Position numbers and translations under genes: made by a program. Below the pieces are notes generated by a model. The model made no database searches, had not been told where the DNA came from, and worked only from the letters and a program-made list of their open reading frames with translations. From positions 9,804-73,803 of the forward strand of contig DILW01000171.1 in the NCBI GenBank assembly GCA_002425245.1: a stretch of DNA of 64,000 nucleotides. Reading direction: 5' to 3'. This document shows, one piece after another, positions 22,321 through 59,953 of this stretch. How positions within the stretch are numbered: the first letter of the stretch is position 1; each line of letters opens with the position of its first letter. The DNA comes from Betaproteobacteria bacterium UBA5582 (GTDB taxonomy: Bacteria > Pseudomonadota > Gammaproteobacteria > Burkholderiales > Rhodocyclaceae).

Positions 22321-22355
22321 AAATCCAGCAAAATCCAGAAAAACTGGATACTACA
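22321..22355. repeat. Either a remnant right end of an older related Tn7-like element (W) or the native gyrB terminator/att region
   Basis: AAATCCAGCAAAATCCAGAAAAACTGGATACTACA resembles the X/Y right ends (AAAATCTAGACAA...GATCCTACA). The similarities are two AAATCYAG copies and the same ...GAT(A/C)CTACA terminus. ATCCAG-N5-CTGGAT could equally be a gyrB terminator hairpin. Confidence 0.4.
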
Positions 22356-22357
22356 AG
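22353..22357. repeat. Left copy of the 5-bp target-site duplication ACAAG of element X
   Basis: Identical to 43941-43945, which lies immediately outside the other terminus of X. Confidence 0.8.
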
Positions 22358-22405
22358 TGTAGGTTCTCATTCAGACTGAGATATCCCTACTGAAATATCT
22401 TGAGG
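22358..22405. repeat. Distal (left-type) end of element X
   Basis: TGTAGGTTCTCATTCAGACTGAGAT shares its first 13 bp with the Y distal end. It contains an AGACTGAGAT motif that resembles the AGTCTAGAT of the right-end repeats. The tniQ stop is only 48 bp inside. Confidence 0.65.
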
Positions 22406-24385
22406 TTAGCTGTTCCCGTTTGAGAGGGATCCTGCCAAATTTCCCAACAGATGAGATGATCCTACGGAAACAACGCACTTGCTGTCGGCGTTTACCTTGA
22501 TCCTCGATTCTACCTCCGAAGGCGCAACGCCCATCAAGTCTGCCAAAAATCGCCTGAGCTCATCCGTCGCAGGATAGATTGCCAGACGTGGTGGCATCAC
22601 CGTGTGCCCTCGAATTGGAAAAATCCCCGCCTCCGCAAGAAGATTCCCCATTTTCTTGGAACTGGTCCGCAAACTTGCTGCGATATCACGCCGATACACA
22701 TGAGCCTGCCGAAATCGCTCGACGTCCTCTATCCGCACGCGAGAGCCCAACTCCTTGTTGGTTCCTAGCTTTTCTGCAGAAACATAGCCATTCTGGCAAA
22801 GCCAGTAGGCCATCTGGTCCTTTATGGCGAGATATCTAGCCATTTCCGGGATGCTCATCCAAGTCAGCTTTCCACTGTTCAGACCAGACCACCAATTTTT
22901 CAGCTGCGCGCGGTCGAATACCCAACTGGATAAACCCACCGCTCCCACCAAAACAGATTGTGGTTTGATTTGTCCAGCCTTCACCGCGTCCACCAAGGTA
23001 GCCACCTGTTCAGTAGTCCAGGTCCAGTAGCGCAAGACGTGACCGAAGGCGACTTGTTCTTCCTCGGGGATCGTCACCACTGGCAAGCCGTCCGTCAAAG
23101 AAAGAATTTCATCCACCTCGTTCCTGGGCACACACCACGGCATCGGTCCTAGTCGAGCCACCCTCCGTGCAGTTGGAAACAAGAGTTTCAGCATGCGACG
23201 CATGCGCATCTTCCCTAGGCCCAGCATCTCCATCGCCTTGCCCATTGTGATCTCGTTGTCGAGTTGAGTAAGGACCCAGTCCAACTGATCACGACGCACC
23301 ACCATGAACCGCCGTCCAGTACTGCTGAACGACTCCTGCCCGTCCAAAAGACCATCCTGCACCATTGCGCGCAGCTTTTTAGGTGACACGCCGATTTCCC
23401 GAGCTGCAGCCTGTGCCGGAATCCACTGAGCATTGGCGAGCAGTTGTTCAGCAAGACGATTGCGTTTGCTCAGCCCCCCTTTCCAATGCTGGCTCAGCCA
23501 CTGCTCAAAGGCATCCCGAACAGGAATGAAAGCACTCTCCGAAAGCCCCTTGTATAGATAGGTATGGGCCTGTTTGAAAACCCCCTTCAGACCGCTCTTC
23601 TGCCCTTCACCCAGTCCTTGCATCCTCGCCCACCCGTCCTGAAAGGCCAGAGGCCACTGGGCCAAGATTTCCGCAGCAAGCGAGGACACAGGCCAAGAGG
23701 CCTGCATCGAGAAAGCCTGCCGAAGTTTCAAGGGCTTCGGCCCAGAGATCGGGTCCATATAGCCACCCAAGAAACGGATCAAACGTTGCACCTGCTCGAT
23801 GGTCATTCCTGCCAGGATGGGAAAATCGTCACCGCCCTCCCGACCCAGTAACCGCATCTCCAGATATCCGGCCAAGCGTCGCACATTGTCTGGAGCGGCT
23901 TGAGGATATTCATGTCGGAGATCGGCGCCACAGGGGCACCGCAAGAGATGTTCCCTCCGCCAAGGAACTGCTTGTCCGCACGAGCTGCATTGGTCTACCA
24001 GCCAGACACCGTGTTGGGGGCAAGCATCATGAAACATCAGCTCCCAGCCGGCCTTCCAAACAGGCTCCTCCATCAGGCAGAGGGGACAAAACCTCGCCTG
24101 GCGCTGATTCCAAACCCGCCCCTTGTCTTGAACCAGTTCTGCCATACGGTTGATATGAGCGTGAAGGTCTGGATCCAAGGTATGACTGGGCAACAAATGG
24201 TTCTGCCGCAGCCAACCCGGGTCATAGCGAGCCCCCAGTTGCTTCAACTCATACAAACTCAGGCAATTGGCTTCGGCCAATCGCAGCATGTAGCCTTGGG
24301 GCCCTTCAGTACGGCTCGGCGCAGGCCGTACCAGGAGATGAGGGATCGAGAATGGGTCTGCAAAAGGGATTCTGTTCTTCGTCAT
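22406..24385 (-). CDS. tniQ: TniQ/TnsD-like target-selection protein
   Basis: 659 aa. The N-terminal TniQ zinc-ribbon pattern is present (CPLCL...CPQHG...CSSCG...CPCG). It is the last gene of the tns operon and is homologous to 44758..46677. Confidence 0.85.
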   Translation of the reverse strand: MTKNRIPFADPFSIPHLLVRPAPSRTEGPQGYMLRLAEANCLSLYELKQLGARYDPGWLRQNHLLPSHTLDPDLHAHINRMAELVQDKGRVWNQRQARFCPLCLMEEPVWKAGWELMFHDACPQHGVWLVDQCSSCGQAVPWRREHLLRCPCGADLRHEYPQAAPDNVRRLAGYLEMRLLGREGGDDFPILAGMTIEQVQRLIRFLGGYMDPISGPKPLKLRQAFSMQASWPVSSLAAEILAQWPLAFQDGWARMQGLGEGQKSGLKGVFKQAHTYLYKGLSESAFIPVRDAFEQWLSQHWKGGLSKRNRLAEQLLANAQWIPAQAAAREIGVSPKKLRAMVQDGLLDGQESFSSTGRRFMVVRRDQLDWVLTQLDNEITMGKAMEMLGLGKMRMRRMLKLLFPTARRVARLGPMPWCVPRNEVDEILSLTDGLPVVTIPEEEQVAFGHVLRYWTWTTEQVATLVDAVKAGQIKPQSVLVGAVGLSSWVFDRAQLKNWWSGLNSGKLTWMSIPEMARYLAIKDQMAYWLCQNGYVSAEKLGTNKELGSRVRIEDVERFRQAHVYRRDIAASLRTSSKKMGNLLAEAGIFPIRGHTVMPPRLAIYPATDELRRFLADLMGVAPSEVESRIKVNADSKCVVSVGSSHLLGNLAGSLSNGNS

Positions 24386-25432
24386 TTAAGTACTTCCTTT
24401 GGCGAGATTCATGCCGAGCTTTCTGGCCACGGGGGAGCCGACGAGCTCTTGGCGGGTGTGTAGCTGAAATACCTCACCAGAACGGTCAAGGGGACGCAGC
24501 ACCGACTCAGGATGGAAAGGATTGAGACGGTCAGGCACGTCCCGCCAGACCCGATTGCGAAATCCCGCCGCCAAAGCCGACAGATCAACCTTTTCCAACC
24601 CTTCGGCTGTAGCAACAGAAACAGCTCCTTCCAGAATCTTGATCACGTAGTCCATGAGGCCATAACTGCCCACATGGAAGCGTCGAGCCTGATTGCTTTC
24701 GTGCAGGGGTGTTTCCATAGGGATGGGCAGATAGGTCTCAAGCGCCTTGAGAACCCCGCGGAATTCCTGGAAATCATCCGCTTGGTCGAAGGCAAATGGG
24801 GCCACCCGTATCCGGGCAGAAAACCGCCTTGCCAGCTGCTCGTTACTGTTGACCACTGACTCAGCCGCCGGCAACCCACAAGCCACCATGCCCACCTGGG
24901 TGGCTTCCAGTAGATTCTTCAACCAGTCGGTAATGTCTCGGAACGCGTTAAGGCTGGGGGCATAGAAGAGATGCTGGAACTCATCGAGCAGCACGATTTC
25001 CACACCACACCGCCTAAACAGGTCATGGATTCGCGCTGTCATTTCCGGCGCAGTACCACGGTGAGCCTTGGGGTACCCCATAGCTTCCAGAATGGCACTA
25101 GCCAAGCTACGGCTAGTCGGTGACGAGGGTACCGAGACCAGAAGTACGGGAATGTGCGTGCGCTCAGTCTCGTAAACCCTAGGGAAGCTCTCCAGATACG
25201 CCTCTACCATCGTGCTCTTTCCAGCCCCTGAGGGGCCAGAAAGTAACAGTCCGCCGCCAGCGTCGTACTTGCGACGGCGCACGTGCAACTCAGCCATAGC
25301 GTGCATCGCTTCACGGTAGCGCCGATGTGGCAGGGGATCCAGGACCAACTTGAATCCTTGGACAGGAAGATGAGTAGGAATCTGGCCGTTTGGTGCCGAT
25401 ATATATCGCGCAAGGATGGTGACCGGATCCAT
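24386..25432 (-). CDS. tnsC: TnsC/TniB-like AAA+ transposition ATPase
   Basis: Walker A LSGPSGAGKST and Walker B IVLLDEFQH. It lies between tnsB and tniQ. Confidence 0.85.
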   Translation of the reverse strand: MDPVTILARYISAPNGQIPTHLPVQGFKLVLDPLPHRRYREAMHAMAELHVRRRKYDAGGGLLLSGPSGAGKSTMVEAYLESFPRVYETERTHIPVLLVSVPSSPTSRSLASAILEAMGYPKAHRGTAPEMTARIHDLFRRCGVEIVLLDEFQHLFYAPSLNAFRDITDWLKNLLEATQVGMVACGLPAAESVVNSNEQLARRFSARIRVAPFAFDQADDFQEFRGVLKALETYLPIPMETPLHESNQARRFHVGSYGLMDYVIKILEGAVSVATAEGLEKVDLSALAAGFRNRVWRDVPDRLNPFHPESVLRPLDRSGEVFQLHTRQELVGSPVARKLGMNLAKGST

Positions 25433-25434
25433 CG

Positions 25435-27399
25435 TTAGGCCACCTTTCTGACAACAGAAAAATCAGGCAATTCGTCATCGAGGCCCGATGGAAGCACCTC
25501 GGGTGGCTCTGATTTGCCCCTCTTAACTGGCTTACGCGCCTCAGCCAACGGATCTTGACTGTGCAATACGGCCTCAGAGTCATGCATGGCAACTCTTGCG
25601 CCGATCTTCCGGTGCCCCATTTTCTTAGCCTTCAAGGCCTCCTGAATCAGGTCCTCAATTTCCGCCTTGGCCTGCAGCAACTGCTCCGATAAAACGTGAT
25701 CGCCAAAGCGCTTACGGGCTTTCTCCCGCACAAGACGATGTATTTCCCGGGGCAAATCTTGAGCGTATGCCGCCAGCTTCGCCGGCACCTTCAAATATTC
25801 CTTAGTGACCGAATCGAAGACATGGATGTGCGCGACCGTGTCCTCGTAGTATTTGAGCTGCACAGGAAGATTCTCACCTGTGCGCCGGCGCAAAACCTGC
25901 AGTTGCTCGGAGTTGTACTGGAGGCCATCAAGCTCGATTCCGTAGTGGAACAAGGTGCGCTTCGCTGGGATGCCGGTGATTACCTCCAATTGCTGAGGAT
26001 GAACCGGCAACTCGATGATGCGACGATCAGCAGAGAGTATCCATTGGTCGATGGGACGAGCACCGATGCCACGGTGAGTCGTGACGTTGTAGACCTCAAC
26101 TACCCATTTGGTCAGAAGATGCACCAACGACTGCATGTCGATGACAGCCTTGTCTTCGGCAGGATAGTCTCCCCGCTCATCTACGGAACTGAATACAGTT
26201 CCAGGCAAGCGATGGATCAAGCCCATATTCATGGTCCGGAAAAATCGCTCAATGGCACCCTTGTGCTGCGGCGTCTTTGAACCACAGAACAGCATTTGAA
26301 TACCCATCTCCATGCACGAGGATTCCAAGGCCTCAGAGTGGAGGTCGGTGCCGTTATCCACGGCAATTAGTTCGGGGATGCCATGGGCAGGCCAGGATCC
26401 CTTGATATCTGGGAAGCGAGCTAACCACTCATCTTTGGGCAGAATGGCCCGACGGAGGCACTGCAGAACGCCATGACTGGAAGGCGCGTTGAAGGAGATG
26501 TAAAACCCAACCACCATGCGCGAATAGTGATCGATGGCCATGGTCAGCCAAGGCCGCCCCAATGGCAGCATCGTCAGACTATCAATGACAATCAGATCAA
26601 GGGGCGTGTGATCGATCTCAATGCGTTCGAGCACGCTGCCAACTTTCACATTCCCTAGCGCCGCCCGGTACTTTACGCGTGCCGCCTCGGCGCCTTCCCG
26701 TGCCTTGTCGACGAGATCTTGCTGAAGGTTGTCCAGCCAGCGGTAGATTGTGGCTCGAGCTGGCTTCCTGATCCGCTCATCGGCCGGCAAGCCATTGTTC
26801 ACGCCATCGACACGCCGGAACACCTCTTCAACCACTTTGAGCTTCGGCAACTTCTGGTTGGTGAGATATACCGAAGCGATGACCTCCTCAAATATCTGAT
26901 AGCGACGCTTGGCCCTCGGACCGGAAGAGGGTTTGTTCCGTGGGATGAGGCAAGTGACGCTCTTGGTCAGCCGGTATCGGCGCCACCAAGCCTGGACGGT
27001 TGAAGGTGCTGGGGGATAGTGATCCTCCAGCTCTCTGGCCGCGCCCTCAATAAGGGAGCGCCACCGACTCGAATGGTAGGGGTTAGCGTCGGGATTTAGT
27101 TTGTCCAAATAATGCTTGCGACGCTTGGCTTCCCGCTGCTGACTCTCGGGGTAAGTCCCCAGGTCACGGGGCACCGTGATGTAGATGGCGTCCTTACTAG
27201 ATCCGATGGATGCCACGTCGATTTCCCATTCGTGCGACAACCACTTTTGGTGGAGTTCGGAATCGGTCAAGTTGAGAATTTCCCCCTTGTCCGATATCAG
27301 TTGGAGTTTGCCCGTTGCGAGACGGCGGGAAATCTCGTAGCCGATCTGCGTTACAACCTCCACCAAGCGCATGCCATGCTTAAAAGAGCAGCGTTGCAT
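25435..27399 (-). CDS. tnsB: TnsB-like DDE (Mu/rve-type) transposase
   Basis: Core strings IEIDHTPLDLIVID, IAVDNGTDLHSEALE and HKGAIERFFRTMN. The start is taken at MQRCSFKHG by analogy with the Y copy, giving a 20-bp overlap with tnsA. Confidence 0.9.
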   Translation of the reverse strand: MQRCSFKHGMRLVEVVTQIGYEISRRLATGKLQLISDKGEILNLTDSELHQKWLSHEWEIDVASIGSSKDAIYITVPRDLGTYPESQQREAKRRKHYLDKLNPDANPYHSSRWRSLIEGAARELEDHYPPAPSTVQAWWRRYRLTKSVTCLIPRNKPSSGPRAKRRYQIFEEVIASVYLTNQKLPKLKVVEEVFRRVDGVNNGLPADERIRKPARATIYRWLDNLQQDLVDKAREGAEAARVKYRAALGNVKVGSVLERIEIDHTPLDLIVIDSLTMLPLGRPWLTMAIDHYSRMVVGFYISFNAPSSHGVLQCLRRAILPKDEWLARFPDIKGSWPAHGIPELIAVDNGTDLHSEALESSCMEMGIQMLFCGSKTPQHKGAIERFFRTMNMGLIHRLPGTVFSSVDERGDYPAEDKAVIDMQSLVHLLTKWVVEVYNVTTHRGIGARPIDQWILSADRRIIELPVHPQQLEVITGIPAKRTLFHYGIELDGLQYNSEQLQVLRRRTGENLPVQLKYYEDTVAHIHVFDSVTKEYLKVPAKLAAYAQDLPREIHRLVREKARKRFGDHVLSEQLLQAKAEIEDLIQEALKAKKMGHRKIGARVAMHDSEAVLHSQDPLAEARKPVKRGKSEPPEVLPSGLDDELPDFSVVRKVA

Positions 27400-28021
27400 G
27401 GCGATCTCCTTCCGTAACAGAAACAAGCGTGTTGGGCGTGATCTCAGCAGCGAGATCACAGTAGAGATAACCTTGAGCCAAAAGCCGCTGCGTAACCTCA
27501 GCCCCGAGGATCATTTCCGAGGTGGCCAGAGTGATCGGCATTTGTCCAAGCAGGCGGACAAGTTCGGCTCGCATCGGCAATACCTCCGCCGTCAGCTTTG
27601 TTCGCACATAACTGAGCCGCCGTAAATTGCTGCGCAGCGGCTCACGCTGGCATTCCAGCTCCGTAACGATGCGAAACTGGGTAGGTGTCTGCTTGTAGTG
27701 GCTAGCAATAGCTCGGTACTTCTCTGCAATCTTGGGTTTGCTGAGCTTCTTGGAGGGCTTAATTTCAAGATGGACGCGAGATCCATTAGATAGCAGAGCT
27801 TCAAAGTCCGGAAAGTAGGCTCGCATCCGTTCCCCATCCCAGTAATGGATCAGAGCCGGTTGTTCTTGGTAGGACAAAACTCCTGGGGAGTATTCCAACA
27901 GAAGGACAACGTCCCCCTCCAAAATCGATTCGCACTCGACCATCCGGCCGAGCTTCATGGACGGTATCCGCATCCGGAATCCCCGCCCGCTGCGGGTTAG
28001 CGCCTTTCGTGACAGCATCAT
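27380..28021 (-). CDS. tnsA: TnsA-like endonuclease subunit
   Basis: Restriction-endonuclease-like motifs (ECESILEGD, YFPDFEAL, HLEIKPS). The ATGATG start at 28021 follows GAGGAG. Confidence 0.8.
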   Translation of the reverse strand: MMLSRKALTRSGRGFRMRIPSMKLGRMVECESILEGDVVLLLEYSPGVLSYQEQPALIHYWDGERMRAYFPDFEALLSNGSRVHLEIKPSKKLSKPKIAEKYRAIASHYKQTPTQFRIVTELECQREPLRSNLRRLSYVRTKLTAEVLPMRAELVRLLGQMPITLATSEMILGAEVTQRLLAQGYLYCDLAAEITPNTLVSVTEGDRHATLLF

Positions 28022-28146
28022 GCTTCTCCTCACGACCGGCGTAGAATCTCCCTGCGCCAGCCGCATGTCGTCAATAATCGAGACAAAAAAGGACTCTCGA
28101 TCAGTGCAAAACTGACCGTTGTCTCGTGTAATCAGTGGGATAAGGC

Positions 28147-28242
28147 TTGACGCCCGAGATGGGGGAGGACGATACTTGGCTTGTCGATAGCGGTAGCGTC
28201 AGCTGCCCATCAAGGGGGCAAGCCTTTGTGCTTGCCCTTTTT
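28147..28242 (+). promoter_or_regulatory. Conserved intergenic module: TTGACG-N18-GATACT, 8-bp palindrome, GC hairpin plus T5 (candidate ~60-nt sRNA or xre/tnsA operator-attenuator)
   Basis: TTGACG at 28147-52, GATACT at 28171-76, and GACGATAC-N16-GTAGCGTC. The hairpin is GGGCAAGC-ctttgt-GCTTGCCC (28216-37) followed by TTTTT. The same layout and spacing occur in element Y (50436-50527). Confidence 0.35.
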
Positions 28243-28672
28243 ACATTTCAGGGGCCTCCTTTCTTTCGGAACAGAAGGCCCTAGCCTGCGCGGAGAGCTC
28301 GATTCCCGCTGTACAAAGCGACGCAGGCAAACGCAACGCGAGCCGGATGAGATATATCTGTTCAACGCGGAGTTGCCCTAGTTGTGCCTCTAACTCATGG
28401 AGCAAGCTGTATTCCTCTTCGCTCGCATGAAGCGGTAGCGTGATCTGGCGGCGCGACTCTGCCAGGGCAATTGTCAGTTCAACCCGTTCATCCTCATCCA
28501 AATCGAGGCCTCGAATCAGGCGCTCAACGAACGCGCGCCGAGGGGGACCCTTTTCGCCCCGCTCCAACGCAGACACATAGCTGGGCTCGTAGCCGAGACG
28601 ATCAGCAACCTCCTTCTGCTTCAGGCCGCGCCGTTGCCGAAGCCGCCGAAGGCATAGAGAAAATGGGCTCAT
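28241..28672 (-). CDS. XRE-family HTH regulator (transposon-associated, conserved in X and Y)
   Basis: HTH RGLKQKEVADRLGYEPSYVSALERGEKGPPRRAFVERLIRGL. It is a clear homolog of 50524..50955. Confidence 0.8.
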   Translation of the reverse strand: MSPFSLCLRRLRQRRGLKQKEVADRLGYEPSYVSALERGEKGPPRRAFVERLIRGLDLDEDERVELTIALAESRRQITLPLHASEEEYSLLHELEAQLGQLRVEQIYLIRLALRLPASLCTAGIELSAQARAFCSERKEAPEM

Positions 28673-28679: not shown

Positions 28680-29063
28680 TTACAAGGCCACTTCTCGGAG
28701 CTTGGCGCACATCCCCTTCAGAAAACGGGGTGGCACTGCATTTGCGTACCGGCGAATATCAGCAATGAGCACCTGAGCCTCTTCGGGAAGTTGCCCATCT
28801 TCTGGCGACATTCCTCGCTCAACAGCCGACTGGCGCTCAATCGCTACAACCTCGGGTTCGCTGACCTTCAACGCGTCGAGTAAGCGTCGAAGGGTCCCTT
28901 TTCGGGGAGGAGGACACTTGCTGTTCTCGATACTGCAGTAATAGCCCGCGGAAACACCGGCCTGAACAGCGACCATCGCCTGGGTGAGGTTCAATAGTTC
29001 GCGTTGCCGACGCAAGCGGGCGCCAACGGTATCCACGAATGCGTTTGATTCTGACATATCCAT
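28680..29063 (-). CDS. Second XRE-family HTH protein (paralog of 28241..28672)
   Basis: HTH LLNLTQAMVAVQAGVSAGYYCSIENSKCPPPRKGTLRRLLDAL. The start is taken at MDMSES (29063). Confidence 0.7.
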   Translation of the reverse strand: MDMSESNAFVDTVGARLRRQRELLNLTQAMVAVQAGVSAGYYCSIENSKCPPPRKGTLRRLLDALKVSEPEVVAIERQSAVERGMSPEDGQLPEEAQVLIADIRRYANAVPPRFLKGMCAKLREVAL

Positions 29064-29198
29064 TTGCCTCACCACCCTCACGAAATTGCAGTCGCAAAAA
29101 AGCGTAGCGAGAGCAGGTTTGTTATGGAAGGCAAAATCTTGGCAAACTGAACGGCACTTTTTGCTGGGCTCATTTAACTCTCGATTCATCAGGTCGAC

Positions 29199-30356
29199 GT
29201 GAAAGCATCCAGAAGCCCCTTGCCTTCCATCTCTTCGTTGCGCCTGAAGGTCGCCACGAACTGCTTCAAGCTCCAGTTGCTTGGAGAAGACCTTCACATC
29301 CCTGGAAACCCGCAAGTTTCAGCGGTTTTCGATGCACTGATGACTGCCGGATGCCAGCAGCTTCTTTCGGAGACGACCTGGAACAATTGGTTTTCTGACA
29401 CTGACGTCGTACCGAAAATCGCCAAGCTCAAGGCATTGGACAAGTTCGCAGCAATTGCCATCCGTGAGCCAGAGCACCAAGGAGCCTCAACAGCCTCGTT
29501 CCGGGGAGAACCGTTCAGCACTTTGGTTCACGGCGGGTTGGTCAAGCATCTAACCGCACGAAGCTCAGCGAAGAAACTGCTGCCGGTTTTGCAGGCAAGA
29601 GCAATCGAATACGAACCCTTATCTCCCTTGCATCTTCACCTAGATGCAATGGAAATCGGGGGGCTCGCAGACAACTTTGGAGATATTCCCTGGACGACGG
29701 TGAAAGCGATCGGGGCCAAACGAATCATGGACATCCTGACCGCCCGCTGGAGTCCCCGGCATGGAACGGTCTACGCCACCCTCTCGTCGGATATGCGGCT
29801 CAAATGGCAGGATGCCGGTGATGCAGAGCGCCAAACGATCCGGGCAAGTTTTGCCAAGATCAAGCCTGATTTGCTCCCATCTTTGATGGTGCAGGCGCCA
29901 AAACCAAACTGGGAGAAGGTCGGTATCAGCGCAGACGTTAGCTCAACACATATCCACAAAGCGCTATTCTCTCTGGCGGCGGATTCCGAGTTTCTTGTTG
30001 CCGACCGCTTGGCTACTTGGTCGCTGGATTTAGCCACTGCGGCGCTCGCGATGCATGCGTACGCTTGGACGGATCGCTATACAACATTTGGCCACAGGAT
30101 CACAGAAGAATTGATCTACTGGATGGCGTTCGATTCGCTTCTATTTGCGAACGACGCGCCAAGCTTTGACCAATTTGATGTAGGCCCTGCGATGGCTGCC
30201 AGCAACGCTGAATGGAGCAATGAATCGGTTAAAACACTGCTTCTAGGCCGTGATACCTATCGCTCACTGCTTGAGTCGCTGGCAGTTTCTGCCGCTGAAA
30301 TTCAATTGATTGCAATGCTGGGCGCAAAGGCGCATCCGCTCGTGTATTACCCCTAG
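29199..30356 (+). CDS. Hypothetical protein, no recognisable motif (cargo of element X)
   Basis: 385-aa ORF divergent from the XRE pair. It is Trp-rich and looks helical. The GTG start is uncertain, and an internal Met at about 29340 is possible. Confidence 0.5.
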   Translation: MKASRSPLPSISSLRLKVATNCFKLQLLGEDLHIPGNPQVSAVFDALMTAGCQQLLSETTWNNWFSDTDVVPKIAKLKALDKFAAIAIREPEHQGASTASFRGEPFSTLVHGGLVKHLTARSSAKKLLPVLQARAIEYEPLSPLHLHLDAMEIGGLADNFGDIPWTTVKAIGAKRIMDILTARWSPRHGTVYATLSSDMRLKWQDAGDAERQTIRASFAKIKPDLLPSLMVQAPKPNWEKVGISADVSSTHIHKALFSLAADSEFLVADRLATWSLDLATAALAMHAYAWTDRYTTFGHRITEELIYWMAFDSLLFANDAPSFDQFDVGPAMAASNAEWSNESVKTLLLGRDTYRSLLESLAVSAAEIQLIAMLGAKAHPLVYYP

Positions 30357-30379: not shown

Positions 30380-31099
30380 CTACGTCCGAGTCCAAGGCTG
30401 AGCGGCTAGTGGCAGCTCATTCAACTCCGCCCGAGCCTCCCGCCAGCTCGGGTAATGCTTGTCCAGCAGATCGATGAACCGCTGGCTATGGGTGGGCTCG
30501 ATCAGGTGCAGCATTTCATGCACCACCACGTACTCCAACAGGTCCTTCGGTTTCTTGACCAGTTCCGTGTTCAGACGGATCGTGCCGGCCCGGTGATTGC
30601 AACCACCCCACTTGGTCTTCATCCGCTGCAGGAAGTAGGCGCTGACGGCAACGCCCAGCAGCGGCTGCCACTTTTGGATCAACGCAGGTATCGTCTGGTG
30701 CAGCAGCGAACGATGCCAGTCATGCATGACCTCCTCGCGCTTTTCCGGTGAGCTACCGGGACGGATCGTCAGCGTGATGCGCCGGTGATCCAGCTTCACG
30801 CCTGGCTTGGCATCCTGCTCAACCACAGAGAGCAGATAGCGCCGGCCCCACAGGTAATGACTTTCCCGCTCGACGAATTGGCGCGGCGTTTCCCGGGCCT
30901 GGGCTTGTAGCTTTTCCTGCTGGTCGCGTATCCAGCCGAGTTTGGAGATGGCGTAGGCGCGAGCAACTTCCAGGCGGGTGCTGGTCGGCGCAACCAGGGT
31001 GACGTGCCCGGCCGGCGGATGTACCGACAGGTGGACATTCTTGACCGCCTTGCGGGTGACCTCGATGGTCAGCTCGCCTAGCTGGATGCTTTCCGTCAC
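30380..31099 (-). CDS. YgjP-like (DUF45/M48-type) zinc metallopeptidase linked to the type I R-M operon
   Basis: HExxH motif ([14 protein letters not shown]). The start overlaps the hsdR stop. Confidence 0.8.
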
Positions 31100-34000
31100 A
31101 GATAACCCTGCTGGCTCTTGGCAATCTCGAACATGGCCATTGTTGCAGCCCTGTCCCGGTTGAACAGCGGGAAGAGCGCGTTCAAGACCTGGGCGCCACG
31201 GGGGCCGTCGGCATCTTCCTGCCAGCCGGCCGGCGCTTGTTCGCGAATGGCACGGTCGATCTGCAAAGCCAGTTCCGCCTTGTCGTCATCGTCGGTCGGA
31301 CACTGGAACTGCACACAAGGCATGGAGGCCAGATTGTTGAACAGCACCGAGGCCTCCCGGTTTCCATGCAGCACGGCGGGCACACCAGCCTGGGGCTGTT
31401 TCGAGGCCAGCTTGCGCACCAGCTCCTCGGCCTTCTTCAGGAATTCCTCATAGGCCGCCGCATCGTCCCGGCTCTGCTTGATCAGATCGTCCAGCAGCTT
31501 CGACATTTGATCGTAAAACTTCGGGTCGGTCAGCTGGTCGCGGATGATGGTCTTGCGGACGTTGTTGATGATGCCTTCGGCGATGGCGTTCTTGGTCAGC
31601 TTGCCCTTCTCGTTGAGCTTGCGGGCGATTGCGTCGTGGATGCCGGTTTCGATGATCAACTCGGTCAGAGACAATTCGCCCAGCTCACCCAGTTCTTCGG
31701 CGGTATCGGCCTGGATATAGGTGTTGATGAGGTGGCGCATGTCCGCCTCGTAGGGCTTGATGTCCAGTTCCTCGCCGGAATGCTTTTTGATGGCGGCGCG
31801 GATTTCGGCGTAGAACTCCACTTCACGTTGCAGCTTCTCCGCCTCGGCGTCGGTATAACCGGCTTCGCTCAGGTTCTGGGCCAGATCGGCATAGGCCCGG
31901 GTGAACAGCGCCACGGCCTTGTAGAACGATACGCGTAGCGGCTCGGTTTCGTTCAGCGCATTGGGGTTGGCCGCATTGCCGCAGAAGTAGTGCAGGTACT
32001 GCTCCACCTCCCGGGGTTGCGACACCGGCTCGCACAGGTAATGCAGTGCCTGCCGGGCGTCGTCCAGCTGTTTCTTGCCTTCTAGCAGCCAGTTCTTGAG
32101 CTGGACGTTGTTCTCGCCACCGTTGCCGGCGTCGATGTCCAGCTCGTCGGAGCTATACACGGCGATAGCCTGCTGCACGTCCCCGAAAAGCTCCTTGTAA
32201 TCAACGATGTGACCGTAATCCTTGTCGTCGCCGTCCAGCCGGTTGGTGCGGCAGATAGCCTGGAACAAGTTGTGGTCGCGCAGCTCGTTGTCCAGATAGA
32301 TGTAGGTGCAGCTGGGCGCATCGAAGCCGGTTAGCAACTTGCTGACCACGATCAACAGCTTCAGGTTGGCCGGTTCGTCCTTGAAGCGGCGCTTGACCTC
32401 GTCCTCGTACTGCTTGGTGGTCTGGCCCTGGGCCAGCACATGCTGGGTGTAGGTGTCGAACTTGTAACGCTCATCGCTGTTGGCAGGCTCGCGGGAAATG
32501 GCGTTGTGGTTGGGCTCGAAGGAGGTGACGAGGCCGCAATACTGGCCGAAGGTCTTGGTCTGAAAGATGCGGTAGTAATGGCAGGCGTCGTAGATGCTGG
32601 CCGCTACTAGAATGGCCGTGCCCCGGTCGTTATTGAGCCGGGGCTTCAGGGCAAAGTCCTGGATGATGTCGGCGACGATGCGCGCCTTGCGCTCTTCCGC
32701 GCTCATCAGTTCTTCCATCGTCGCCCAGCGCTTGCGCAGGATCGATTTTTGGAAGTTGTTGAGGTTCTTCGTCTTCTGTTCGAACCACTGGTCGATGGCC
32801 TTGCGTGAGCCGAGGCGCTGGGGCACGTCCCGAGCCTCGTACTTCAGGTCTAGCACCACCTTGTCGGCCACGGCCTGATGGAACTTGTAGGTGTGGATGT
32901 AGGTGCCGAACACGTCCCGCGTCATCTGCTTGTCTTTGCGCAGCAATGGCGTGCCGGTGAAGCCGATGAAGATCGCCCCTTCCAGCCAGCGCTTCATCTG
33001 CTTATTCATGTCGCCGCCCTGGGTGCGGTGGCATTCATCAACGAAGATGTAGAAACGGCCATGGACCCGGGGCGGCTCGCCCTTGAGGTCGGTGGTGTCG
33101 AACTTGTGGATCAGCGCGCAGAGCAGGCGCGGCGTGGTGGCACCGAGCTTGTCGATCAGTTCGGCGCGGGAGGTGATGCGCGGTGAAGCGGCATCCTCGC
33201 CGATCACCCCGGCGTTGCGCATGACGCCGACGATCTGCTTGTCCAGTTCGTCCCGGTCGGTGATGACCAGGATGCGGGCCTCTGGATCGTGTTCCAGCAG
33301 CCACTTGGCGATCAACACCATCAGGATGCTCTTGCCACTGCCCTGGGTGTGCCAGATCACCCCGCCTTCCTGCTTGGCGACGCGCTCCTGGGCTGCCTTG
33401 ACGCCCTGGAACTGATGCTGGCGCGGCACCTTCTTCTGGCCGGCGTCGAAGATGATGAAGTTGCGGATCAGATCGAGCAGCTTGATCTTGTCACACAGCT
33501 GCGCCAGCGGCCGGTCGAGCAGGCTGCCGGCTTCCGGCGTGACACCGACAGCGGGGGGCGCTTCGTCCTTCCATTCGACAAAGAACTGCTCCGGCGTACC
33601 GGTGGTGCCATAACGCAAGCCTTGCGAGTCGCTACCCGCCATCACCAACTGCACTGTGCTGAAGAAGCCCTTGTTGAAGATTTCTTCCTGATTGGTAATC
33701 AGCTGGCGCACCCCGTCGGCCACTTCCACCGAGCTGCGCTTGAGTTCCAGCACGGCGATGGCGATGCCGTTGATGTAGAGCACGATATCCGGCCGCCGCT
33801 GGTAGCCGCCCTTGAGCGTCACCTCCTCGGCCAGAGCGAAGTGGTTGTTGCCCGGCGTAGCCCAGTCGATCAGGTGCACCTTGTCGTGGGGCTGGCCGGC
33901 GGCTACCTGCACATCAACACCGTAGCGCAGCAACTGGTAGGTGCGCAGGTTGGCCTGGTAGAGGGTGATGCCGGTGCTGTCGGCCGCCGTAAGCAGTTTC

Positions 34001-34206: not shown

Positions 34207-34216
34207 GGGCGGCCTA

Positions 34217-44591: not shown

Positions 44592-44646
44592 GTTGAAAAC
44601 TCACAAATATTAGACGCCTTCAATGCTACAAACTCCAGAAACGAAT

Positions 44647-46677: not shown

Positions 46678-46678
46678 C

Positions 46679-50955: not shown

Positions 50956-51294
50956 TGTTAATGGATGGGCATGACATTTTGGCTCAAGGATAGAGCCAAG
51001 TGCGCCTGGTATCAACAACGAAAAACACAATTAATCACATTGGATCAACAACTTAGTATGTATTGGTATGCCAAGATATACCAAATTGCAAAAATTGCTG
51101 TGAATTACTTGGGATCACCTAAAGATGTCATTGAGTAGCTGAGACAGCAGCAGCAATTACCATTGCATAATATGAGCCATAGATTCACAATCCGTCTCAC
51201 TCTAGTCACCAGTACTTCTAGAAAATTGAAAATGTCTTATAGGTGAACTAGGTGCATTTCTAAAGTACAACCATTTGCGTGTGAGACTCGACCA

Positions 51295-53223
51295 ATGATC
51301 GTCGCCGATAATGAGACAGCTGTCGACCTCCTATATTACGAGGCGATTGCACGTACTGTTGTCCGCCTAATCAATGAAAAATCGGACGAGCCTCTTAGCG
51401 TAGGTATTCACGGTGATTGGGGCGCTGGAAAGTCTAGCGTCCTGATGATGGTAGAAGAATCATTCTCCGATGATGAACGCGTACTTTGTGTGCGTTTCAA
51501 CGGCTGGCTATTCCAGGGCTTCGAGGACGCAAAAGCAGTCCTGATTGAAATGATCGTCGAGGAGCTACGCCGAAAACGTCCTACATCTCAGAAGGTAGCT
51601 GAGCGGATAAAAAAGGTTTTAAGGCGAGTCGACTGGATGAAGCTCGCACGCAAGGCAGGAGCATATGGCATAACATTAGCCACCGGAATCCCGCAGCCTG
51701 AGACTGTAAAAGATTTGTGCGCGGCCGCGCGAAGTCTCATCAATAAAGGCGCTGAGGATGTGTCGCCAGAAACCCTAGCAGCGCTAGTAGAGGGTTCGAA
51801 TGAATTTTTGCACGAAGTTAGCGAAAGCAACGCACCTGAGCAGATGCATGCGTTTCGGAAAGAGTTTGCTGAACTCTTAGCGGATGCCGAGATTGATCGC
51901 CTAATCGTCCTTGTTGATGATCTTGATCGGTGCCTTCCGGATACTGCAATCGAGACATTGGAAGCAATAAGGCTCTTCCTGTTCGTGCCGCATGCGGCTT
52001 TTGTGATCGCAGCGGATGAGGGAATGATCGAATATGCTGTGCGGCAACATTTTCCGGATCTGCCAGTAGCTACTGGGCCAGCCACCTATGCCCGGAACTA
52101 TCTAGAAAAACTAATTCAGGTTCCATTTCGTTTGCCCTCGCTCGGATATGCCGAGACACGAATCTACGTGACTTTGCTTCTAGTGCTAAACGCCTCTGGA
52201 GAGAAATCGGAAACGTTCCAGGAGCTAGCCAAGATGGGGCGTGAGGTACTGCGCCGCCCTTGGAAGGGTCCCGGCCTTGATCGGAGAGCAATCGAGGAAA
52301 CTTTAGGCAGCGTTCCGCTTGAGGTCGAGCGGGCGATGGAACTTGCTGGACGGATTGCTCCGATACTAGCCGACGGAGCAAGAGGTAACCCAAGGCAGAT
52401 AAAGCGCTTTATCAACACGATGATGTTGCGTCTGGCTATAGCAGAGGAGCGCGGCTTCCGCGATGAGTTGAATATCTCGGTACTTGCCAAGATCATGTTA
52501 GCGGAACGTTTCGCCCCCGAACTCTACGACGCGATAGCGCGTGGCTCTGCAAATACTGGTGCGTCGGAGGAACTCGCCGCACTTGAAGCCGTGGTCACGA
52601 CCCCGCCTACCGACTTGGAAGCAAAATCAACGAACGGACAGGAGAAGACTCTGGCTGCTGGGGTATCCCTCCCCGATTGGCCGAATCTTGAATGGGCAAA
52701 ACAGTGGGCTGCGATTGACCCACCGCTCGCTGAAAATGATCTCAGGCCATACGTCTTCGTAACCCGAGACCGGCGAAGCGTGTTTGGTGCAGTAACATCA
52801 TTGGGAGAACTAGACGAACTTATCGCGAAACTCCAGGGCTCTCCACTCCAGGTAAAGCAAGCCGCTACGGAAATCGCTCGCCTTCAATCACTCGAAGCCG
52901 AACAAGTCTTTGACGCCCTTCGAGCAAAAGTCCGAGACACAGACGATCTGACCCAAGAACCTGTGGGCGTAAAAGGCTTAGCCGAGATGGCGCGCCAGCA
53001 TAAATTCCTGCAGCGACCATTACTCTCCTTTCTACAGGATCTGCCAATCTCCAAGCTTGGCCCGTGGGTGGTCAGTGGCTGGGCGTCGGTTTTCAGTGAA
53101 ACTAATGTTGAGGCAGAGTTTACAGCAACGCTCAAAGGCTGGGCCGAACAAGATGACAACAAAAAATTGAAGGCAGCATCTGAGGCTGTCATCAAACTTG
53201 TAGGGAAAAGGAAGCGCTCCTAA
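51295..53223 (+). CDS. qatA: KAP-family P-loop NTPase (QatA-like)
   Basis: Walker A GDWGAGKSS and Walker B LIVLVDDLDRC. It is the first gene of a four-gene coupled operon. Confidence 0.8.
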   Translation: MIVADNETAVDLLYYEAIARTVVRLINEKSDEPLSVGIHGDWGAGKSSVLMMVEESFSDDERVLCVRFNGWLFQGFEDAKAVLIEMIVEELRRKRPTSQKVAERIKKVLRRVDWMKLARKAGAYGITLATGIPQPETVKDLCAAARSLINKGAEDVSPETLAALVEGSNEFLHEVSESNAPEQMHAFRKEFAELLADAEIDRLIVLVDDLDRCLPDTAIETLEAIRLFLFVPHAAFVIAADEGMIEYAVRQHFPDLPVATGPATYARNYLEKLIQVPFRLPSLGYAETRIYVTLLLVLNASGEKSETFQELAKMGREVLRRPWKGPGLDRRAIEETLGSVPLEVERAMELAGRIAPILADGARGNPRQIKRFINTMMLRLAIAEERGFRDELNISVLAKIMLAERFAPELYDAIARGSANTGASEELAALEAVVTTPPTDLEAKSTNGQEKTLAAGVSLPDWPNLEWAKQWAAIDPPLAENDLRPYVFVTRDRRSVFGAVTSLGELDELIAKLQGSPLQVKQAATEIARLQSLEAEQVFDALRAKVRDTDDLTQEPVGVKGLAEMARQHKFLQRPLLSFLQDLPISKLGPWVVSGWASVFSETNVEAEFTATLKGWAEQDDNKKLKAASEAVIKLVGKRKRS

Positions 53224-54089
53224 TGGGAACCTCGGGAACATTCAAAGGCTCGAAAAACGGACTGGTTCCGAGTTGGGTTGATGAACCAGCCTCACCGCCC
53301 GCAGCTATACCCAGCAACGCGGGGTCGGACTCAACAGATGGTGCCGGAACAAACACCGGAGATCCACCCAACGGGACATCAGCACAGCCATACCCACCCA
53401 TACCTCGAATCCCTGCTAGCTCAGGTCTTGGCGGAGCACGCGGAAACATAACGAGAGGCGCACGAACGTCCGATGAACGAGCTCTGCGGCGAGGCGCCGG
53501 TCGATACGTACGGGCAAGCGGTGGAGGGAGGGCAGCGGCGAGCCGTATGCCTAATTCCCGCGCCGTAGCAAGCGGTATAGCTAGCCTCGCGAGAAGCTTA
53601 GCTAACCAAGGACCGATAGAAGCTCTAAGGCAGTTTAATCTTGAGACTATGGCGGGTGCCCCCGCCGAGGATGTATTCGTCGCCTTAACAAATATGCTTT
53701 GCCCTGCAGGGGGAACCATTGATGAGGCAATTGCCAGAGACGCGATGCTTGAGACAGTCGCTGACTTGGCAGCCTCTGGTGTAGGTAATTTTAATGAACT
53801 CTCTACAGACGATCTGCGTGAGTTCTTCATTGGCGTAGTGAGCAGATCGATCGAAGGTAAGATTCTGAATGAGGTTGGAACTAACGCTATCGCGGTGCCT
53901 TCGGATATCGCCGGAGTAGAGCGCACGCAAGCCATGCTCCATGATTTCATTGAGGGCTGTGTACGCGACGAGTTCGACGCACGTCAAACCAATTTCAGCG
54001 ATCTTGATGTAGCTGCTGTCGATAGCTTTGTCGACGATCTGTATGGTGCCGCACTCAGTTTAGTTGAGGCTTTGGGAGACGACAGATGA
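53223..54089 (+). CDS. qatB: QatB-like protein
   Basis: It starts MGTSGTFKGSKNGLVPSWV and has a low-complexity linker. The call rests mainly on its position between the KAP NTPase and the QueC-like gene. Confidence 0.6.
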   Translation: MGTSGTFKGSKNGLVPSWVDEPASPPAAIPSNAGSDSTDGAGTNTGDPPNGTSAQPYPPIPRIPASSGLGGARGNITRGARTSDERALRRGAGRYVRASGGGRAAASRMPNSRAVASGIASLARSLANQGPIEALRQFNLETMAGAPAEDVFVALTNMLCPAGGTIDEAIARDAMLETVADLAASGVGNFNELSTDDLREFFIGVVSRSIEGKILNEVGTNAIAVPSDIAGVERTQAMLHDFIEGCVRDEFDARQTNFSDLDVAAVDSFVDDLYGAALSLVEALGDDR

Positions 54090-55456
54090 GAAGGTTTAAT
54101 CTGATCGGCCGACTCGGCCCCGACGACACAAGTAGCGTCGAAACGGTCCAGTCCGATGCATGCACGTTTGAAATTGATTTTCTGGATGGTAACCGGCGGA
54201 TGGGTTTTGGCATTGGTGACGCGCTGGATCAACTTGCTTCCTTCGGGCTACGACCTTCTGAAAGGGGTATTGATCTTGTCGTCCTCGCGGCCCTCGTCAA
54301 CGCCGGTGATACGAGAGTCTCGCGAAAATTAAACGCGCAGGATGGCTGGACACGTGAGATCGATCTCTATGTTCCAGTGTCTGCCCCGGCGGTTTGGACC
54401 GCGAACACAAAATTGATCGAAGCGATGTTGCGCTTCTTATCAGGTGATCGGTGGCGCGTATTTTTCCGCGACCGAACAAAGAGAACTAACATCCTCGCTG
54501 TGACTCCTAAAGGCTTGGCGATCGATGGACTAACGAAGGTAAGCCTGCTGTCTGGCGGTTTGGATAGTCTCATTGGTGCTATCAATCTTTTGAGTAATCA
54601 AAACCAGCGTCCACTGTTTGTCAGCCACTATTGGGACAGCGAGACAGCTAAAGCTCAGACCTACATTCTTGATCGCCTGGAAACCAAGTTTGGCAAAGGT
54701 ACTTTCAAAAACCTTCGGGTGCGGCTTGGTTTCGATAGGCACCATCTCACTACCGGCGAAACCGAAAATACTCAGCGGGGACGGTCTTTCCTCTTCTATT
54801 CACTGGCGACACTTGCTGCGTCAGCAATCGACGGCCGAAGCACCGTCGATATTCCAGAGAATGGCCTCATCGCGCTCAACGTACCCCTTGATCCATTACG
54901 GTTTGGGGCACTTAGCACACGAACAGCACATCCGCACTTTATTGCAAGCATGCAGCGGTTAATCAATGCCCTTGCACTTGATGTCATATTGGACAACCCA
55001 TACAAGCACATGACGAAGGGAGAGATGGTCGCTAAATGCGCGGACAGAGCTTTCCTTAAAAAAATAGTTGCGAATTCAATGTCCTGCTCTTCGCCAGCAA
55101 AAGCACGTTATAAAAAACTCTCTCCTCGGCATTGTGGCTACTGTGTTCCATGCTTAATCCGCAGAGCTTCGCTTGAGTTTGGTCTTGATGGTAACGATGA
55201 AACGCTCTATACCATTGAAAATCTGAAAGCGCATATCTTGGCTTCCGATCAGCCAGAGGGGGAACACGTCCGATCCTTCCAACTAATGGCCAAGAGAATT
55301 AAAGCAAAACCTGTTCTTGCGAATATCCTTGTTCACAAACCTGGTCCACTTCATGAGGAACCAGCAGCGATAGAGGGTTACGCAGATGTGTTTCGACGCG
55401 GCGTCCTTGAAGTCGCTAAGCTCCTCGATAGTGTTCGGGCACGACCAGGCGGTTGA
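54086..55456 (+). CDS. qatC: QueC-like PP-loop ATPase (QatC-like)
   Basis: PP-loop LLSGGLDSLIGA and a Cys cluster CSSPA...HCGYCVPCLIRR. Confidence 0.8.
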   Translation: MRRFNLIGRLGPDDTSSVETVQSDACTFEIDFLDGNRRMGFGIGDALDQLASFGLRPSERGIDLVVLAALVNAGDTRVSRKLNAQDGWTREIDLYVPVSAPAVWTANTKLIEAMLRFLSGDRWRVFFRDRTKRTNILAVTPKGLAIDGLTKVSLLSGGLDSLIGAINLLSNQNQRPLFVSHYWDSETAKAQTYILDRLETKFGKGTFKNLRVRLGFDRHHLTTGETENTQRGRSFLFYSLATLAASAIDGRSTVDIPENGLIALNVPLDPLRFGALSTRTAHPHFIASMQRLINALALDVILDNPYKHMTKGEMVAKCADRAFLKKIVANSMSCSSPAKARYKKLSPRHCGYCVPCLIRRASLEFGLDGNDETLYTIENLKAHILASDQPEGEHVRSFQLMAKRIKAKPVLANILVHKPGPLHEEPAAIEGYADVFRRGVLEVAKLLDSVRARPGG

Positions 55457-56208
55457 CGATGCGGCCAGAATACGTCGACTTCCATACACATCTCGACCTC
55501 TATCCTAACCTTGCTCAAGCAATTGAAATCTGTAATCGCAAGCATGTAGCTACGTTAGCAGTCACGACAACCCCGAAAGCGTTCGAAAAAAACGTTGAGC
55601 TGTCTGCGAATAGCGAATTTGTAAGGGTTGGGCTCGGTCTACATCCTCAGCTCGTCGCCGACCGGCACTTAGAGATAGAGTTGTTTGAGAAACTCTTAGA
55701 ACGTACGCGTTATGTTGGTGAAATTGGACTTGATCGCAGCCCCGCTCATTACCATTCCTTTGATCTACAAAAGTCTGTCTTTGGCAGAATTCTTAGTGCC
55801 TGTTCGAAACATGGCGATAAGGTTTTGAGCATACACAGCGCCAGAGCAACAAAGCCAGTGTTAGATATGCTTGATGAGCACTTGCCGCCACATCGAGGGC
55901 GCATCGTCCTGCATTGGTTTTGCGGTAGTAAGTCCGATTTACGTAGGGCTGTTGATCGCGGCTGCTATTTTTCAGTAAACGAGGGTATGCTCGCTTCCGA
56001 TGCAGGCAAGCGTGTAATGCACGAAGTACCGATTGATCGGATACTGACAGAGACAGACGGTCCTTTCATCGTACGCGGTGAAAATCCCATTGAACCCGGC
56101 GATGTTGGCCGTGCTATCGAAATGATTGCTTCTTCCGTGGGCTTACAGCTCACGGAAACTCGCTACAAAATCCTTTCAAATCTCAAAAGACTCTTGCAGA
56201 GCGATTAG
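55453..56208 (+). CDS. qatD: TatD-family metal-dependent hydrolase/DNase (QatD-like)
   Basis: VDFHTHLD, SIHS, VLHWF and LTETDGPF motifs. Confidence 0.8.
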   Translation: MTMRPEYVDFHTHLDLYPNLAQAIEICNRKHVATLAVTTTPKAFEKNVELSANSEFVRVGLGLHPQLVADRHLEIELFEKLLERTRYVGEIGLDRSPAHYHSFDLQKSVFGRILSACSKHGDKVLSIHSARATKPVLDMLDEHLPPHRGRIVLHWFCGSKSDLRRAVDRGCYFSVNEGMLASDAGKRVMHEVPIDRILTETDGPFIVRGENPIEPGDVGRAIEMIASSVGLQLTETRYKILSNLKRLLQSD

Positions 56209-56236
56209 TGAGCCTTCCTCGATTTTATCGAGTCTG

Positions 56237-56291
56237 ATTCCCACGAAATCTAGACTTTTGGGAAAAATCTAGATGATCGTGGGATCCTACA
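56237..56291. repeat. gyrB-proximal (right-type) end of element Y
   Basis: 52/55 identical to 43886-43940. It contains the inverted repeat CCCACGA...TCGTGGG and two AAATCTAGA copies. Confidence 0.8.
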
Positions 56292-56296
56292 AAGCC
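56292..56296. repeat. Right copy of the 5-bp TSD AAGCC of element Y
   Basis: Identical to 43943-47. It is followed by GG and then TCA, the gyrB stop. Confidence 0.8.
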
Positions 56297-56298
56297 GG

Positions 56299-59953
<3,655 letters not shown>

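Follow-up and report, generated by a model that had tools for sequence, protein, structure and literature searches.

At attTn7, the selector TnsD of prototypic Tn7 binds conserved coding DNA of glmS, and insertion takes place about 25 bp away. The lists of attachment (att) sites of 2024 comprise glmS, ffs, parE, guaC, rsmJ, tRNA, comM, yhiN and nrdB. In the parE-targeting elements (Tn7017/EasCAST; Acinetobacter ursingii, A. baumannii), TniQ directs insertion just past parE (PMC11014353, PMC11406308). Here, a stretch of 64,000 nt from Betaproteobacteria bacterium UBA5582 (GCA_002425245.1, contig DILW01000171.1, positions 9,804-73,803 of the forward strand; hereafter the window) was analysed, in which two Tn7-like elements, X and Y, are stacked directly after gyrB. 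With a probability of about 0.88, X and Y are members of one Tn7-like cut-and-paste family whose dedicated att site is the 3' end of gyrB. We lean, with clearly less confidence, towards a wider proposal: a large unnamed Tn7-like clade of Proteobacteria whose TniQ would read the wobble-tolerant codons of the GyrB C-terminus, with weak intra-family immunity, outward 'tree ring' stacking and its own gyrB terminators. gyrB is universal, essential, single-copy and close to the replication origin, and would be an addition to the short list of Tn7-type att sites.

These elements share with prototypic Tn7 a predicted TnsA/TnsB heteromeric transposase, an AAA+ adaptor and a selector with a TniQ domain; their ends read TGT…ACA and 5 bp are duplicated, as in Tn7. 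Insertion is likewise oriented, at a fixed distance of ~25 bp past a conserved 3' coding stretch, and the essential gene is kept intact. The tns genes are transcribed away from the target gene in both, and the selector matches the fold of the TnsD-TnsC-DNA complex. They differ from Tn7 in their target (gyrB, not glmS), in a short TniB-type TnsC (348 aa), in the lack of TnsE or of a second pathway, and in a TniQ of ~650 aa with excisionase-type winged helix-turn-helix (wHTH) modules in place of TnsD. Whereas the cargo of Tn7 lies beyond the tns genes, that of X and Y lies between the right end and tnsA. An XRE gene before tnsA, a compact 55-bp right end with two inverted motif copies, and frequent tandem stacking with no evident intra-family immunity are further differences.

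The nearest parallel is found in the parE-homing elements. Their att site also follows the gene of a type II topoisomerase B subunit, parE being a paralogue of gyrB, whereas the gene used here is gyrB itself, with its GyrB_insert domain and dnaA-dnaN synteny. The parE selector has ~486 aa and often comes with a second small TniQ or Cas genes, whereas a single TniQ of ~650 aa without Cas is present here, the selectors being compared by description only. The gyrB and parE sites would form a comparison pair for TniQ retargeting between paralogous genes. CRISPR-associated transposons (CASTs) of type I-F3 have a matching TniQ core fold and the same short TniB-type TnsC and tnsA-tnsB-tnsC-tniQ order. 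They use guaC, yciA, rsmJ, ffs and yhiN instead of gyrB; X and Y have no cas genes or CRISPR array, and would be targeted by a protein and not by a guide RNA. As in the Tn7-like defence islands of Benler et al. (2021), restriction-modification (RM), cyclic oligonucleotide-based anti-phage signalling (CBASS), ImmA-type and other defence genes dominate the cargo, and islands arise at a safe site.

Judged from sequence, the gyrB att specificity and the selector architecture appear new within the Tn7-like class, outside the glmS/TnsD/TnsE clade, the CASTs and the parE group. A preliminary description of this DNA had already raised the possibility of an undescribed att specificity. The searchable literature does not contradict it; that a gyrB att site of the same class has already been described, in the subscription literature, the Tn registry or a survey table, is nevertheless possible, if doubtful. 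From the usual dnaA-dnaN-recF-gyrB order, a Tn7-like element of Pseudomonas putida HB3267 presumably stands directly after gyrB. A 2016 paper lists it as 'Tn7-like transposon' at B479_00025-B479_00140 (genes 5-28) and does not mention gyrB. The gyrB paralogue parE is a known att site (PMC11014353, PMC11406308), which also speaks for an earlier description. Against it, gyrB was nowhere given as a Tn7-like att site in the searchable full-text literature (subscription papers lay outside this scope), including Benler 2021 and Faure 2023, where 'gyr' is absent from the main text and the supplements consulted. The 2024 lists do not contain gyrB, and database names for these TniQ proteins are only 'TniQ family protein' or 'hypothetical'.

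Boundaries, ends and transposition genes of X and Y

The two elements, their target duplications and the target gene are located in the window as follows.
22353-22357, no strand: distal copy of the X target duplication ACAAG; gyrB-side copy at 43941-43945
22358-43940, minus strand: element X, 21,583 bp; proximal (gyrB-side) end at 43940, distal end at 22358
43941-43947, no strand: X/Y junction ACAAGCC, 7 bp, in which the gyrB-side ACAAG of X overlaps the distal AAGCC of Y
43943-43947 (distal) and 56292-56296 (gyrB-side): Y target duplication AAGCC
43948-56291, minus strand: element Y, 12,344 bp; gyrB-proximal ('right') end at 56291, distal ('left') end at 43948
56292-56298, no strand: gyrB-side AAGCC of Y plus GG, the 2 bp before the gyrB stop
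56299-58773, minus strand: target gene gyrB, encoding 824 aa; Pfam HATPase_c, DNA_gyraseB, Toprim, GyrB_hook, GyrB_insert and DNA_gyraseB_C

The target was identified as gyrB because all GyrB Pfam domains, including GyrB_insert, are present and dnaN lies directly upstream. Its stop codon reads TCA on the plus strand (56299-56301). X begins with TGTAGGTTCT at 22358 and ends with GAGATCCTACA at 43940; Y begins with TGTAGGTTCC at 43948 and ends with GGGATCCTACA at 56291. The terminal inverted repeat TGTAGG…CCTACA is 12 bp long with one mismatch in X and one in Y, and the last 56 nt on the gyrB side are 95% identical between the two. Each 5-bp flank match has a chance probability of ~1/1024. X and Y have the same orientation and stand 9 bp (X) and 7 bp (Y) past the gyrB stop. 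The limits of both elements, both 5-bp duplications, the 7-bp junction and the common orientation had been given correctly to the base in the preliminary description. Its placement of the target 1-7 bp after the stop was corrected: read in the direction of gyrB, the 5 bp duplicated are +3..+7 for Y and +5..+9 for X. The tns genes were also relocated, to the gyrB-distal end of both elements.

The transposition genes and their upstream regulators are the following (families from Pfam).
22406-28066, minus strand: X transposition operon, with tniQ 22406-24385, tnsC/tniB 24386-25432, tnsB 25435-27459 and tnsA 27380-28066
28241-28672 and 28680-29315, minus strand: two X genes of XRE-type helix-turn-helix (HTH) proteins upstream of tnsA, HTH_31
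44758-50569, minus strand: Y transposition operon, with tniQ 44758-46698, tnsC/tniB 46679-47725, tnsB 47722-49680 and tnsA 49661-50569
50524-51030, minus strand: Y gene of an XRE-type HTH protein directly upstream of tnsA, HTH_31

In both elements the order is xre-tnsA-tnsB-tnsC(TniB)-tniQ on the gyrB strand. Protein identity between X and Y is 71% for TnsB, 61% for TnsC, 55% for XRE, 46% for TniQ and 41% for TnsA, and the two read as different Tn7-like elements. TnsA matched PF08722 above the cut-off in both (35.3 and 29.3 bits vs 26.5), together with an NCBIfam TnsA-like subfamily; the alignment also shows an E…PD…K motif, the roles of its residues being assigned by analogy. The true start of Y tnsA is probably inside the annotated ORF. 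The rve match of TnsB was below the Pfam gathering score (26 vs 32.6 bits, E 1e-5), and D283, D368 and E404, invariant between X and Y with DD(35)E spacing, are its predicted catalytic residues. TnsC is of the short TniB type (348 aa; PF05621, 109 and 99 bits) with a Walker A motif GPSGAGKST, also invariant. TniQ matched PF06527 with 40 and 36 bits (cut-off 27) and HTH_17, and the X TniQ is identical to a 659-aa database protein. The lengths of the tns ORFs agree with those of relatives and no sign of decay was seen in them; X and Y are apparently intact and may be active at present. An XRE/HTH_31 gene directly precedes tnsA in every family member examined (X, Y, L002, L084-L086, L093, L094; L numbers denote loci and contigs). 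It would be a fifth conserved core gene and a putative regulator, possibly a repressor, of the tns operon.

No TnsE-like ORF was found between tniQ and the element end (48 bp in X, 810 bp in Y). The 810-bp tail of Y holds a sole ORF (44274-44591, minus strand, 105 aa) with a weak match to MvaT/H-NS-type silencers (NCBIfam E 2.5e-4, far below cut-off). Neither cas genes nor a CRISPR array were found in X or Y, whose large ORFs all belong to tns, defence or regulator families. RM, CBASS and Qat cargo is typical of many kinds of island, and the locus could also be read as an integrase-type genomic island or prophage remnant with coincidental TGT…ACA ends. However, X and Y contain no integrase or recombinase ORF and the complete tnsABC-tniQ set is present twice. 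Each element is bounded by a 5-bp duplication, and conservation of the terminal repeats extends to more than 60 unrelated loci. The chance that such an island explains the locus is, in our estimate, negligible.

Two features of the gyrB-side ends were located.
43849-43873, minus strand: GC-rich hairpin and T-run of X, GAGGCCACTTGCACAGAGTGGCCTCTTTGTATT, just inside the proximal end
56237-56291, minus strand: proximal end block of Y, ~55 bp conserved, TGTAGGATCCCACGA..TCTAGATTTTTCCCAAAAGTCTAGATTTCGTGGGAAT

Throughout the family, the gyrB-side end is a conserved block of ~55 bp, TGTAGGaTCcCAc….TcTAGATTTTTCcCAAAagtcTAGATTTcgtgggaat, a consensus derived from 61 unique ends. Within the block, YCCCACGA-N2-3-TCTAGA occurs as two inverted copies, which co-vary between elements and are presumably TnsB sites. 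The distal end has its terminal ~13 bp in common with the gyrB-side end and carries dispersed GAGA/TTCCC motifs over ~90 bp. The gyrB-side end, judged by its position and by the direction of the tns genes, corresponds to the right end of Tn7; tnsA starts ~850-920 bp from it in L056 and L036. A hairpin with a T-run lies just inside the block in 55 of 65 unique ends, vs 4 of 65 shuffled controls, at +56..+106 (L008-L076). This element-borne hairpin seems to be a terminator, by prediction, for transcription leaving gyrB.

Linkage to gyrB and distance of insertion

The metagenome collection was scanned with a degenerate pattern that contained no gyrB letters and was built solely from the gyrB-side ends of X, of Y and of two stacked elements, in L004 and L005. 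The scan gave 69 loci with 61 distinct end sequences. In 63 of them a gyrB stop was found 3-25 bp (73 bp in one case) upstream of TGTAGG, always in the same orientation; in three others the end was 5 bp behind the …CCTACA end of another element. The expectation of the preliminary description that relatives would lie systematically by gyrB was thus borne out by a search without gyrB information. Ends at loci next to neither gyrB nor another element, which would speak against homing, amounted to three of the 69. GyrB in the flanks has 49-99% identity with that of the window (median 70%), and the GC content of gyrB is 38-65%. Full-length gyrB is present in 29 loci, a dnaN match in the same locus in 29, and 42 loci span the GyrB_insert domain.

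Two complete elements were recovered next to gyrB. L084, anchored by its TniQ (P0108, 53% identical to that of X), is an element of 11.9 kb running from gyrB-TGA-TGTT to a matching ATGTT duplication. L011 is a 7.9-kb element by gyrB with the duplication AACCA. This second element has an IS21-type istA/istB pair and no tnsABC-tniQ, and is probably a non-autonomous derivative, for which mobilisation in trans would be possible. In L031 and L056, tnsABC-tniQ (TniQ ~45% identical) stand beside the gyrB of low-GC hosts.

The distance between the element end and the codons of the GyrB residues NAL was 26-30 bp in 53 of the 63 gyrB-linked loci (26 bp, n=5; 27 bp, n=31, the mode; 28 bp, n=5; 29 bp, n=11; 30 bp, n=1), with 6 or 7 codons trailing NAL. 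In the window it is 28 bp for Y and 30 bp for X. Since this distance is constant despite the 6 or 7 trailing codons, insertion follows the coding motif and not the stop codon. Across hosts, the 3' coding block of gyrB is conserved as TTLMGxxVEPRRxFIExNAL, with variation mainly at wobble positions, and the last 6-7 codons (…NARIDI in the window) differ between hosts both in sequence and in number. This points to the conserved coding stretch as the likely determinant:
56320-56358, minus strand: predicted TniQ recognition stretch in gyrB, placed from the NAL spacing and conservation

The preliminary description had put the determinant in the 3' coding end of gyrB, which agrees with these data, and more narrowly in the last codons …NARIDI, which does not: these vary, and insertion tracks the upstream …PRRxFIExNAL coding stretch, the likely determinant by spacing and by comparison with TnsD. 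The geometry at gyrB resembles that of TnsD at attTn7; the bases read, and the protein reading them, are proposed on that analogy.

Clustering after gyrB could also reflect a regional preference, for origin-proximal DNA or a terminator structure, or vertical inheritance of an ancient insertion. gyrB adjoins oriC, native terminators are found just downstream, and some matches come from related hosts with identical flanks (L066/L067, L016/L037). Such a preference would nevertheless have to produce base-pair precision relative to a coding motif across 49-99% GyrB identity and 38-65% GC, and common descent would have to accommodate 61 distinct end sequences and numerous cargos. Among closely related strains the elements differ, and they are inserted at +6, +7, +9 and +25 (L020); these are separate insertion events. 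In the window, a hairpin/terminator at ~22290-22320 belongs to the native gyrB-downstream DNA beyond the distal duplication of X; X and Y were inserted upstream of this native terminator, not inside it, and the elements have no TnsE-like protein. Regional preference or inheritance is very improbable in view of these data.

In the mechanism that we propose for a gyrB-dedicated family, TniQ would read the conserved …PRRxFIExNAL coding DNA through a type I-F3-like core combined with a C-terminal array of excisionase/MerR-type wHTH domains, and TnsC would bridge TniQ and the heteromeric transposase (TnsA+TnsB). Joining would occur ~27 bp downstream, just beyond the stop, with a 5-bp duplication and the 'right' end always toward gyrB, so that the essential gene stays intact. 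Because the determinant survives insertion, a second family member could enter the same 5 bp (±2) between gyrB and the resident, and the resident would be pushed outward. The arrival of X and then Y would build an origin-proximal island of defence cargo, and most members would supply their own terminator inside the gyrB-side end.

Several points weigh against gyrB being the dedicated att site of the family, or against parts of this mechanism. Targeting, transposition and DNA binding are deduced by analogy with TnsD/attTn7. Three of the 69 loci (L035, L050, L076) have a flank that is neither gyrB nor an element end; off-target insertion, rearrangement or a second class of targets may account for them. 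Ten of the 63 gyrB-linked ends lie 32-94 bp from the NAL codons, mostly with short TGTAGG-end-like pieces in between, which points to insertion beside or inside what is left of an earlier element. In most loci anchored by TniQ (L001-L007, L086-L094), the flank ends before gyrB could be reached; loci anchored by TniQ or TnsB carry 10-kb flanks, and those anchored by TniQ are mostly uninformative because tniQ is at the far end and the cargo exceeds the flank. Aquitalea sp. USM4 (L001, CP029539.1 1,472,965-1,494,941) has a family element, with a TniQ 47% identical to that of X, at 1.47 Mb of a complete chromosome record. Y is without the terminator that most members have, and read-through from gyrB would therefore enter the convergent qatD. 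Finally, resident right ends that are nearly identical did not block a second insertion, unlike what is known as target immunity in prototypic Tn7.

The 10 kb covered in L001 contained no right end, and an efflux OEP gene is located upstream. A candidate 'proximal end' at 1398 of this locus was rejected as a chance match, and a pseudo-gyrB motif in the flank of L050 was rejected for its wrong spacing, despite partial similarity. Look-ups of TniQ proteins P0150, P0047, P0114, P0160, P0134, P0170, P0190 and P0254 were mostly uninformative; only P0108 reached gyrB. Genome contigs were also scanned with two N-terminal peptides from the TnsB alignment as patterns, which gave four loci, none reaching gyrB within the 10-kb flank. 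No TniQ more than 27% identical was found on plasmids (PLSDB), and no relative of tnsB in E. coli genomes.

Stacked elements and order of arrival

Stacking recurs in the family, with spacers of 7 bp in the window, 5 bp in L004, 4-5 bp in L005, 5 bp in L009, 5 bp in L010/L069 and 6 bp in L086/88/90. The site without X and Y was recovered from a close relative (L020, GyrB fragment of 129 aa, 99.2% identical), in which TGA-CCGGCTTTGTAGGATCCAGTTTTTC follows the stop uninterrupted. This native sequence equals the outer flanks of the window joined together, bar one indel and one mismatch, and to that extent confirms the empty site that had been reconstructed in silico in the preliminary description. 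In L083, a contig of the same species whose GyrB is 99.9% identical, an X-type right end stands at +6, without Y and with a different cargo.

The overlapping duplications in ACAAGCC fit either order of arrival. The view of the preliminary description that the newer copy is nearest gyrB is thus not demonstrated by the duplications alone; it does follow from the fixed-distance model. If Y had come first by gyrB, with X arriving later on the far side of Y, X would have been steered to a position 12.3 kb away from the determinant in gyrB and 2 bp from the target of Y, and nothing is known that could do so. Under fixed-distance targeting, moreover, the distances of 28 bp (Y) and 30 bp (X) to the NAL codons both fall in the 26-30 bp range of the family. 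In L084 a decayed right-end relic lies beyond the intact element, and the older copy there is therefore the outer one; L083 has the X-type right end at gyrB without Y. The separate duplications of the two elements exclude a move of the pair as a composite. Arrival of Y before X, or of both together, is accordingly unlikely. We infer that X came first and Y later, from fixed-distance targeting backed by the 26-30 bp range, L084 and L083. Stacks with spacers of 4-7 bp would offer a readable record of arrivals, and they raise the question of why target immunity fails between family members.

TniQ selector, cargo and surroundings of gyrB

An AlphaFold model of the ~650-aa TniQ, made with 30 homologues, had a mean pLDDT of 80. 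Its best fold matches in PDB were the TniQ proteins of type I-F3 CASTs (9gs9, 6v9q and 6v9p; E 3e-7 to 1e-4), and it also matched the Tn7 TnsD-TnsC-DNA complex (E 1e-4). The C-terminal modules gave local fold matches to excisionase wHTH domains of the Xis/RdfS/BldC type. With Pfam, HTH_17 was found in two stretches and weak MerR/wHTH matches at ~aa 320-400. At the sequence level, matches to solved TniQ structures are confined to the zinc-ribbon region, and phmmer against PDB gave no TnsD sequence match. The model suggests a type I-F3-like core contacting TnsC and a C-terminal wHTH array reading gyrB DNA. If this holds, a gyrB-homing TniQ would be a candidate for broad-host, guide-free site-specific integration, as a 'safe harbour' integrase.

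The TniQ family comprises 184 clusters at 90% identity, with Rhodocyclaceae, Aquitalea, Silvimonas and Formivibrio among the source names, and its relatives form 881 clusters at 50% identity (E <= 1e-30). A distant TniQ of ~650 aa with the same architecture (P0190, L096-L100) is followed by a 254-aa ORF with a TniQ domain, and the TniB of these loci has 389 aa. Upstream, lspA (Peptidase_A8) and not gyrB is within reach. Distant members, P0190 included, probably use other att sites, and P0190 probably marks the edge of the gyrB-homing clade.

In both elements the cargo is enclosed by the gyrB-side end on one side and the xre gene on the other.
30380-38211, minus strand: X type I RM plus a YgjP-like gene (next line), with hsdM 35485-38211 (N6_Mtase/HsdM_N), hsdS 34217-35494 (Methylase_S) and hsdR 31096-34206 (HSDR_N/SWI2_SNF2)
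30380-31099, minus strand: X YgjP-like metallopeptidase (Pfam)
38424-39598, minus strand: X CapP/CapH-like regulators
39787-43749, plus strand: X type III CBASS, with CD-NTase, HORMA, TRIP13 and SAVED-endonuclease (PADLOC, Pfam)
51295-56208, plus strand: Y QatABCD anti-phage system; PADLOC QatA 4.8e-275, QatB 4e-90, QatC 3e-181 and QatD 7e-108; Pfam KAP_NTPase, QueC and TatD

The PADLOC scores of the X CBASS genes were 2.5e-142 (Cyclase), 9e-82 (HORMA), 2e-135 (TRIP13), 1e-201 (Effector) and 1e-77 (capP). Variable defence islands (RM, CBASS, Qat) are thus found in the chromosome region of highest copy number.

On the other side of gyrB, two genes were placed.
58847-59953: dnaN, directly upstream of gyrB
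60163-61662: dnaA-sized ORF, labelled dnaA from synteny with L083 and size only

The dnaA-dnaN-gyrB order is present in L083. Downstream, the gene of a subtilase autotransporter (18913-21828) is 99.4% identical in contigs L077-L082. The empty site was not recovered by way of this gene: the sequence of these contigs departs from that of the window exactly at 22158 or 22278, short of the end of X, and at least four different sequences are seen upstream of the divergence points. Beyond X and Y, the whole interval from gyrB to the autotransporter gene appears hypervariable in the population. Since gyrB is a common phylogenetic marker, it is of practical interest that the DNA downstream of it is a hotspot of assembly breaks and strain differences.

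The native DNA after the gyrB stop, CCGGCTT(T)GTAG(G/T)ATCCAG, is like the element end TGTAGGATCC (10/10 in L020). End-like fragments of 5-10 bp were seen between gyrB and the current element in several other loci (set: L020, L024, L049, L071, L063), and such fragments may be relics of earlier insertions or excisions.

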